A stretch of 8,367 bases of DNA from a virus (lineage: Monodnaviria; Loebvirae; Hofneiviricota; Faserviricetes; Tubulavirales; Inoviridae), in the IMG/VR virus record IMGVR_UViG_2675903352_000001, one strand, 5' to 3'. Both the position numbers and the translations under genes were made by a program. Of this stretch, positions 5,530 to 5,792 are shown piece by piece (within the stretch, counting starts at the first letter, position 1; every line of letters starts with the position of its first letter). Below the pieces are notes generated by a model. That model did not search any database. It saw only the letters and a program-made list of their open reading frames with translations, and was not told the origin of the DNA.

Positions 5530-5688
5530 TTACAAAAAAGATGAAAAAAGTGTTTTCGTCAGGGAAAACACATACCCGAAGCCAAAACCGGCAAGCCAGC
5601 TGATGGCCCATATACCAAAAAGTGCAACAAGCGGAGGATAAGAACCCACGCCGGATATTGTCACAAGAAAATTTGTCTCAGAAAGCAT
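5530..5688 (-). CDS. Small hydrophobic protein (52 aa), candidate pIX-like minor coat protein; absent from the ORF track
   Basis: My translation: MLSETNFLVTISGVGSYPPLVALFGIWAISWLAGFGFGYVFSLTKTLFSSFL. Its ATG (5688-5686) overlaps the stop of the upstream small ORF in a TAATCATG arrangement. Position matches gene IX in Ff. Confidence 0.45.
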   Translation of the reverse strand: MLSETNFLVTISGVGSYPPLVALFGIWAISWLAGFGFGYVFSLTKTLFSSFL

Positions 5689-5690
5689 GA

Positions 5691-5792
5691 TTAACGCCTT
5701 CCCGTAATGACTCCGCCAATAAAAGCCAGTGAAAATATCAGCACTGGCACAGCGCCAAAGAGAATAAGAACGAAAAATTCAGTCGTGAGCAT
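5691..5792 (-). CDS. Small hydrophobic protein (33 aa), candidate pVII-like minor coat protein; absent from the ORF track
   Basis: My translation: MLTTEFFVLILFGAVPVLIFSLAFIGGVITGRR. Same length as M13 pVII and a similar C-terminal pattern (M13 ...FALGIIAGGQR as recalled). Located between the pV-like and pIX-like genes. Confidence 0.55.
   Translation of the reverse strand: MLTTEFFVLILFGAVPVLIFSLAFIGGVITGRR

Follow-up and report, generated by a model that had tools for sequence, protein, structure and literature searches.

The locus described here lies on the minus strand of an 8,367-nucleotide (nt) stretch of inovirus DNA, IMG/VR record IMGVR_UViG_2675903352_000001 (hereafter the window), between the gene that occupies the slot of the pV (single-stranded DNA-binding) gene and the gene for the major coat protein precursor. 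The gap, which runs from the TGA of the pV-slot gene (5805-5803) to the coat ATG at 5509, is 293 nt long and holds two small open reading frames (ORFs) that had been picked out in an original prediction made from the window alone. We confirm both, each with an ATG start: p33, a 33-codon mini-gene (5691-5792, MLTTEFFVLILFGAVPVLIFSLAFIGGVITGRR), and p52, a 52-codon mini-gene (5530-5688, MLSETNFLVTISGVGSYPPLVALFGIWAISWLAGFGFGYVFSLTKTLFSSFL). We consider them candidate counterparts of the filamentous phage proteins pVII and pIX, the second with a conserved N-terminal extension. They are packed as tightly as had been claimed, covering 261 of the 293 nt (89%) and leaving spacers of 10 nt between the pV-slot stop and the p33 ATG, 2 nt between the p33 TAA and the p52 ATG, and 20 nt between the p52 TAA and the coat ATG. 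The second start was also said to overlap the first stop, which is incorrect: the p33 TAA (5693-5691) and the p52 ATG (5688-5686) stand 2 nt apart in the junction CGT-TAA-TC-ATG.

The two products are hydrophobic, as predicted, with grand averages of hydropathy of 1.66 (p33) and 1.12 (p52). Each has one transmembrane-length segment and no signal peptide, and their best 19-residue hydropathy windows (2.81 over residues 7-25 of p33, 1.80 over residues 20-38 of p52) are comparable to or above those of M13 and IKe pVII and pIX. The charges are E5 and R32-R33 in p33, and E4 and K45 in p52. A single-sequence AlphaFold2 (AF2) model of p52 has two helices, one at residues 2-15 and one of 35 residues at 17-51, separated by a break at residue 16 just ahead of Tyr17-Pro18-Pro19, with a predicted local distance difference test score (pLDDT) of 87 overall and 88-96 over residues 21-52; modelled in this way, p52 would be a helix of pIX length with an N-terminal extension. 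Foldseek found no matches of the model in the PDB, as expected of a single helix. The evidence for coding from the window alone is modest. A two-ORF tiling of this kind arises in 3% of mononucleotide shuffles of the gap and is only mildly unusual, so the case for genes rests on comparison with relatives.

Relatives were sought by DNA search of complete Escherichia coli genomes, in the contigs of coat-protein relatives, in IMG/VR and metagenome scans, and with HMMER run in full over 1.84 billion representative proteins. The HMMER scan gave a single credible distant match, P0019 (55 amino acids, 47% identity), which led to contig L030 and its sister contig L037; two other matches, P0018 and P0020, are long and repetitive and were taken as spurious. 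The IMG/VR and metagenome scans returned only Escherichia copies, 96-100% identical, and when p52 and its alignment were used in word-indexed protein searches, two clusters (98-100%) were all that came back. One-genome-per-species bacterial contigs scanned with the coat and p52 alignments gave no match. Together these searches define four deep lineages: Escherichia (E. coli and E. albertii), Edwardsiella tarda (L014), L015, and L030/L037, the last two being metagenomic inoviruses. In all four, a 33-amino-acid ORF is followed by a 52-56-amino-acid ORF directly upstream of a homologous coat gene, and both frames are kept in every E. coli and E. albertii copy with clean sequence. The p33 homologues of L011, L014, L015, L030 and L037 are each 33 amino acids long; those of p52 (L014, L015, L030 and L037) measure 52-56, with the 55-56-residue forms in L030 and L037.

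The p52 alignment (A10) has 19 columns that are invariant in all lineages, including T10, I11, G15, Y17 and P18 within the conserved N-terminal extension of 19 residues, which has the consensus LVTIPGxGxYPPL. Conservation of the additional 19-20 residues at the N-terminus makes the ATG at 5688 the likely true start. On the same ground, protein-level conservation of the N-terminal 19 residues, we reject a shorter p52 from internal GTG starts, a 39-amino-acid form of which has been annotated once. Two plus-strand ORFs of 40 and 62 amino acids that overlap the region are not seen in the ORF lists of L014 and L015.

Between lineages the nucleotide identity is 64-79%, and the differences gather at third codon positions (e.g. 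11/7/19 and 14/8/29 at positions 1/2/3). In comparisons among the window, L014 and L015, the uncorrected in-frame ratio of the proportions of nonsynonymous and synonymous differences (pN/pS) is 0.34-0.40 for p33 and 0.26-0.36 for p52, with pS at 0.49-0.71 and pN at 0.13-0.26; the corrected ratio of rates (dN/dS, Nei-Gojobori) is 0.14-0.21 for p33 and 0.13-0.22 for p52. Fisher p values in frame run from 1.3e-3 to 1.5e-4 (p33) and from 2.8e-5 to 2e-7 (p52). In the +1 and +2 frames pN/pS is 0.65-1.86 and not significant, and stops appear in relatives. Against L030 the ratios are 0.53-0.63 for p33 and 0.57-0.67 for p52, still below 1. The last 60 codons of the coat gene, taken as a benchmark, give 0.05-0.45. 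It had been set out beforehand that unconserved frames, with synonymous and nonsynonymous changes equally frequent, would speak against genes; what we find is clearly different, in that the frames are kept and selection is specific to them.

This pattern bears directly on the possibility that p33 and p52 are untranslated and stay open only by chance, in an intergenic spacer rich in AT. Such a reading could point to the 3% of shuffles of the window that tile comparably, and to the 33-amino-acid ORF never having been called by annotation pipelines. However, chance frames would not be expected to show frame-specific purifying selection, to keep length and sequence across genera at a nucleotide identity of 64-72%, or to change mostly at third positions while the alternative frames acquire stops in relatives. 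We regard it as extremely improbable, and effectively refuted by the frame-specific selection and the L030 comparisons; p33 and p52 are almost certainly real, conserved and selected protein-coding genes.

The two mini-genes had been claimed to complete the Ff gene order, and the gene map bears this out, with p33 and p52 sitting in the gene VII and gene IX slots. On the minus strand of the window, which carries all the features that follow, the order is Rep, pV slot, p33, p52, coat, terminator, pIII, pVI, pI, pIV, and is Ff-like. Upstream are a Rep_trans rolling-circle replication initiator, the pII counterpart (6148-7374; PF02486, 1.6e-21; phrog_453, 1e-108), and the pV-slot gene, which encodes 111 amino acids from its ATG (5803-6138; phrog_14411, of unknown function, E 2.7e-49). 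The major coat protein precursor of 106 amino acids (5189-5509; phrog_17608, E 8.5e-53) has a terminator-like GC hairpin and T-run directly 3' of its gene (5153-5168); in Ff phages such as M13 a terminator is present after gene VIII. The mini-genes share the strand and operon-like block of all phage genes, and this block ends at the post-coat hairpin.

Downstream of the coat gene, the remainder of an Ff-like morphogenesis module is recognisable in Ff order. It comprises a pIII-like attachment protein with Gly/Asp-rich linkers (3780-5150; phrog_17820, 4.7e-219; phrog_8482 'attachment protein', 1.3e-7), whose L016 homologue carries PF05357 Phage_Coat_A, a pVI-like minor coat protein (3418-3777; phrog_27651, 9.8e-78; phrog_1944 'minor head protein', 6e-4), the pI/Zot assembly ATPase (2436-3410; PF05707 Zot; phrog_1675 'protein I of M13', 1.6e-36) and the pIV secretin, in two ORFs (912-2131; phrog_1012 'protein IV of M13', 1.4e-61; PF00263). 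The end of the prophage is marked by a dif-like XerCD site (415-442) with one mismatch to what we take to be the 28-nt E. coli dif sequence; shuffles gave 0 matches. Related elements in E. coli genomes (flanks of L001 and L016) adjoin hipBA. The element is therefore an integrated filamentous phage that exploits Xer recombination. Another Enterobacterales prophage with genes VII and IX, UPphi901, integrates at dif through XerCD as the window phage does, but is a relative of IKe and I2-2 (PMC7307601). With the locus, pIII, coat, p52 and the p33 of L030 as queries, blastn and tblastn against 50,697 GenBank phage records gave no DNA or protein match to the window phage, so it belongs to a different, undeposited lineage.

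The trio of p33, p52 and coat gene is contiguous behind five different upstream modules: Rep_trans and the phrog_14411 protein in the window; a 660-amino-acid Rep and a 141-amino-acid protein in L011 (1354-3808); Rep_trans and an unrelated 108-amino-acid protein in L014; Rep_trans and a PF17426 Putative_G5P protein in L015; and Rep_trans, a PF02303 Phage_DNA_bind protein and extra ORFs in L030. The trio stays constant while what precedes it changes, and thus the mini-genes belong to the structural module. The order of pV slot, p33, p52 and coat is found in the window, L014 and L015; in L030 the extra ORFs separate the single-stranded DNA-binding gene from p33. Within E. coli genomes the window matches as two independent blocks, 6400-5813 (Rep and pV slot) and 5798-5109 (mini-genes and coat), and in many copies the match begins at window 5780. 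These ends therefore put the recombination joint past the pV-slot stop and no further than about codon 4 of p33 (~5780-5813). The first four residues of p33 vary with the upstream module (MLTT vs MSVA).

What these genes encode is best judged against the known tip proteins. Ff pVII, five copies of which sit at the leading, blunt end of the virion, is needed for assembly to begin. In the f1 virion, as seen by electron cryomicroscopy, pVII and pIX are proteins of about 33 amino acids with no signal sequence and one hydrophobic helix; the N-terminus of pVII is negatively charged, and the positive C-termini of both tip proteins face the DNA (PMC10175506). With pVII of the Ff phages (M13, f1 and fd; also IKe, I2-2 and If1), p33 shares the slot after the pV-slot gene and before a second mini-gene and the coat gene. 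It is identical in length to M13 pVII (33 residues) and is likewise signal-less, with a single hydrophobic segment and, in the window, L014 and L015, an acidic N-terminus and an Arg-containing C-terminus. p52 shares with pIX of the same phages a slot that follows the pVII-slot gene and precedes that of the major coat protein, and resembles it in a hydrophobic helix of about 32-35 residues and in a Lys/Thr-rich C-terminal end. In other words, genes VII and IX of M13, IKe, If1 and I2-2 occupy a slot identical to that of p33 and p52. From position, size, hydrophobicity and charge polarity, and not from a sequence match, we infer a pVII/pIX role, and we put the probability that p33 and p52 are functional counterparts of Ff pVII and pIX at roughly 0.75.

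The expression anatomy of the locus follows the same lines. The p33 ATG has no properly spaced Shine-Dalgarno sequence. Its distance from the preceding stop is 10 nt in the window but 2 nt in L014, and in L015 it is 1 nt, the same arrangement as that from V to VII in M13. The gene VII start of f1 is inherently defective and works only by coupling, and both V-VII and VII-IX coupling have been documented for f1 and IKe (PMC12548453). A start that, as in Ff pVII, lacks a good Shine-Dalgarno sequence and falls 1-10 nt past a stop in three lineages suggests coupling of the kind described for f1 and IKe from V to VII. The p52 ATG is preceded at 8 nt by a purine-rich, Shine-Dalgarno-like GGGAAGG (5697-5703, minus strand) in the last Thr-Gly-Arg codons of p33, with equivalents in L014 (GGGGAGG), L015 (GGGGAG) and L030 (GGAGGGG); by its sequence and placement this element would serve translation of p52. 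Ff pIX likewise has its Shine-Dalgarno embedded in the end of the preceding mini-gene, and in M13 the IX start is preceded by glycine codons that belong to the end of VII, a parallel to the p33/p52 junction. The ATGA overlap of M13 VII and IX is replaced by a spacer of 2 nt (TAATCATG) in the window and L030, and of 8 nt in L014 and L015. The coat gene has a strong AGGAG of its own. This gradient, from the weak p33 start through the embedded p52 Shine-Dalgarno to the coat AGGAG, fits low-copy tip proteins and a high-copy coat protein, and expression of p33 and p52 is probably kept low.

A 9-bp hairpin at 5680-5702 of the minus strand was considered and rejected as a conserved feature. It pairs the p52 Shine-Dalgarno (GGAAGGCGU) with the AUG region, leaves the p33 stop in the loop and would suit coupling by RNA unfolding; however, it is confined to the E. 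coli lineage, being absent in L014, L015 and L030, and shuffled sequences do as well (z-score -0.68). An Rfam search gave no match.

A number of observations weigh against the assignment to pVII and pIX, beginning with the sequences themselves. The profile search that had been suggested as a check, run against the pVII and pIX families, gave no match for either peptide. p33 does not match Pfam PF19978 (Inovirus_G7P_2) at E<=1, nor do its homologues from L014, L015 and L030 at E<=10, with a gathering threshold of 27 bits and positive controls at 76.4 (M13), 63.2 (IKe) and 74.4 bits (If1); Pfam holds no pIX model. The PHROG families of pVII (phrog_7781 and phrog_19107) and pIX (phrog_10143 and phrog_28333) recognise their own members but neither p33 nor p52, and PHROG pIX leaves the peptides of the window, L014 and L015 unmatched, with M13 pIX (3e-26) and IKe pIX (1.1e-23) as controls. 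An NCBIfam scan also gave no match to p33 or p52, in a collection without a pVII or pIX model in which M13's own proteins go unmatched too. A profile search of the PDB returned photosystem PsbT for p33 and nothing for p52, and did not return f1 pVII or pIX; the PsbT match is a chance transmembrane-helix match, and indicates that a single such helix discriminates little.

Comparison of alignments gave the same weak picture. With hhalign, the p33 family against pVII reached a probability of 4-14% (P 0.011 to 0.002), and the p52 family against pIX 3-12% (P 0.0026 to 0.016) over 25 aligned columns; the crossed pairs gave P 0.035 (p33 family vs pIX) and 0.009 (p52 family vs pVII). Column shuffles put p33 against pVII at z 2.1 and p52 against pIX at 3.3, with 0.5 and 2.0 for the crossed pairs p33 vs pIX and p52 vs pVII, and with 10.9 (pVII) and 6.5 (pIX) for the positive control of M13/If1 vs IKe/I2-2. 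The cognate pairs score above the crossed ones, yet any cognate-specific similarity appears weak and non-significant, and homology to M13 pVII and pIX is not demonstrable. Of the resemblance to M13 pVII that had been claimed for p33, the length stands (33 amino acids each), whereas the C-terminal pattern is visible but statistically insecure: the invariant positions of alignment A1 are V17, F20, L22, I25, G31 and R33, and p33 and pVII are 27-40% identical when alignment is forced. The description of the 52-amino-acid ORF as pIX-like holds for its slot, but no pIX family is matched, and every pIX of the Ff group is at least 20 residues shorter. Ff pIX has 32-33 amino acids against 52-56 in p52, without the conserved 19-residue extension, and p52 has no acidic residue equivalent to Glu29 of f1 pIX, which forms a salt bridge to pVII Arg33. 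The rest of the module is recognisably M13-like, and divergence of its two smallest and fastest-evolving proteins past detection would therefore be unsurprising.

Other difficulties come from the neighbourhood. The C-terminus of p33, GRR, GRG or GRN in the window, L014 and L015 (all with E5), is GGE in L030 and L037, so that in this lineage p33 ends in Glu, unlike Ff pVII with its Arg. The same two contigs carry a third hydrophobic 33-amino-acid mini-gene just upstream of the p33 homologue (L030 3102-3203, MKWLIVFSLPVFGFLWGAICYVVMNHILLIDGD; L037 1723-1824), which is absent from the window and under purifying selection (pN/pS 0.38, p=0.011). The third mini-gene and the Glu-ending p33 make a one-to-one mapping onto VII and IX likely but not guaranteed. 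The pV-slot protein of the window has no Pfam match and no recognisable single-stranded DNA-binding domain; it shows no BLASTP similarity to the slot proteins of L014 or L015, and its AF2 model (pLDDT 43) does not give a usable fold. Elsewhere the slot holds the PF17426 and PF02303 proteins of L015 and L030.

Finally, the window copy carries frameshifts in two assembly genes relative to L017, an intact prophage copy that is 97.6% identical. In pI/Zot a perfect 13-bp tandem repeat at 2439-2472 (2.6 copies) amounts to a 13-bp insertion, a duplication that shifts the frame and leaves 324 amino acids vs 418, and in the pIV secretin gene the loss of 1 bp near 1359 leaves two ORFs, of 310 and 146 amino acids. 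This copy is probably assembly-defective unless the indels are sequencing errors, and may no longer form particles. Both mini-genes are intact in it, unlike pI and pIV.

Two other explanations accept the genes and dispute their roles. p33 and p52 may be real, conserved phage membrane proteins that are not virion tip components, the tip of this lineage being built otherwise; they could then assist assembly or insertion, act in membrane stress or superinfection exclusion, or regulate the export machine. That homology to pVII and pIX is not detectable, that p52 is much longer than pIX, and that with a third conserved mini-gene in L030 and L037 the slot can house more than two canonical tip genes would all agree with this. 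However, the linkage to the coat gene is strict across five replication modules, p33 and p52 agree with pVII and pIX in slot, size and charge polarity, and between the Rep and pIV genes the window offers no other candidate tip genes. We consider a non-tip role unlikely. More improbable still is a swapped or partial assignment, in which p52 would take the place of pVII in the inner bundle and p33 that of pIX outside it, or in which one of the two only is in the virion. The sequence evidence does not separate the two roles, p52 scoring against pVII (z=2.0, hhalign P=0.009) about as well as p33 does (z=2.1), but the order of VII then IX is constant in M13, IKe, If1 and I2-2, p33 has exactly the length of pVII, and the top single score belongs to the cognate pair of p52 and pIX (z=3.3).

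Our preferred reading is that p33 and p52 are small single-helix inner-membrane proteins of the structural module of a dif-integrating inovirus, and most likely its pVII and pIX counterparts. By analogy with f1 and M13, both would enter the inner membrane signal-less, the acidic N-terminus staying outside and the basic C-terminus facing the cytoplasm. At the pI/pIV export machine, assembly on the packaging hairpin would be nucleated by a few copies of each, and p33 and p52 together would build the blunt, leading end of the virion, from which the major coat protein would then polymerise. Location in the virion, a role in assembly initiation and translational coupling are all expected here from what is established for Ff phages.

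More tentatively, and with the odds rather against it, p52 may represent a distinct 'long pIX' class, and p33 and p52 may found a family of tip proteins with no sequence relationship to PF19978. If so, the N-terminal segment of p52 (helix 2-15 and the Tyr-Pro-Pro break) would project from the leading virion tip. Ff phages tolerate N-terminal display at this tip. The extension could then engage or open the secretin gate, or contact host or environmental surfaces.

A further observation concerns the C-termini of the two proteins. In L030 and L037 the p33 ending GGE is paired with a p52 C-terminal KR or KRY, an apparent compensatory charge swap; in the window, L014 and L015 a basic p33 end is paired with a neutral p52 end (window p33 5691-5705, p52 5530-5560). 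The summed C-terminal charge of p33 and p52 stays at +2 to +3, although this is a single evolutionary event and anecdotal. The loss of GRR for GGE in p33, together with the gain of KR in p52, suggests that both C-termini may act together on the DNA.

The mini-genes had further been described as unannotated, and this is true of p33 but only in part of p52. The exact p33 peptide of the window, like those of L011, L014 and L015, is absent from a collection of 15 billion proteins, and p33 is unannotated in the two RefSeq relatives whose annotation was read. Some RefSeq genomes, e.g. E24377A, list p52 as a 'hypothetical protein', and it occurs in the 15-billion-protein collection solely under that name. 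Among 23 RefSeq E. coli records with the 263-nt match, 15 have no feature there and 8 have one hypothetical protein. The mini-gene region is present in 22 of 5,426 complete E. coli genomes, including the enterotoxigenic strain E24377A, at 65 places in all. A single genome can hold as many as 8, which suggests that the prophages form tandem arrays at dif. E. albertii and Edwardsiella tarda carry the lineage as well.

p33 and p52 complete the gene map of this inovirus lineage, and p33 is a concrete case of a conserved gene that no pipeline has called among 15 billion predicted proteins. They make two small families available to annotation profile libraries, both of which existing PF19978 and PHROG profiles miss. 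We see in them a new sequence family in a known functional class, a useful annotation catch within ordinary inovirus biology: the expected architecture is confirmed, not altered.

Several minor features of these prophages were also noted. A circular 9,613-bp 'plasmid', pJNE25-005_3 (L002, NZ_AP045060.1), carries a copy of the structural module with ISEc31; many of its coding sequences are fragmented, and its p52 is frameshifted. The record may represent an episome, a replicative form or an artefact of assembly. In the window, a 45-bp tandem duplication at 5392-5485 (2.1 copies, 81% match) lies in the leader region of the coat gene, and the coat precursor has 106 amino acids in the window vs 84-91 in most relatives; the duplicated form is also found in cluster P0003 (61 members). 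In the pIII-like gene, a perfect hexanucleotide repeat (CCATCA x6, 4786-4821) codes for an Asp-Gly run, and the linkers are rich in Gly, Asn and Ser. Prophages that are otherwise 95-98% identical diverge most in the N-terminal part of pIII (window 5109-4562). Outside the prophage, a 73-amino-acid ORF on the minus strand (window 1-222, MQTYTSTQARANIATVLDTALNGEPVEITRRDG...) resembles, by eye only, an antitoxin of the Phd/YefM type.

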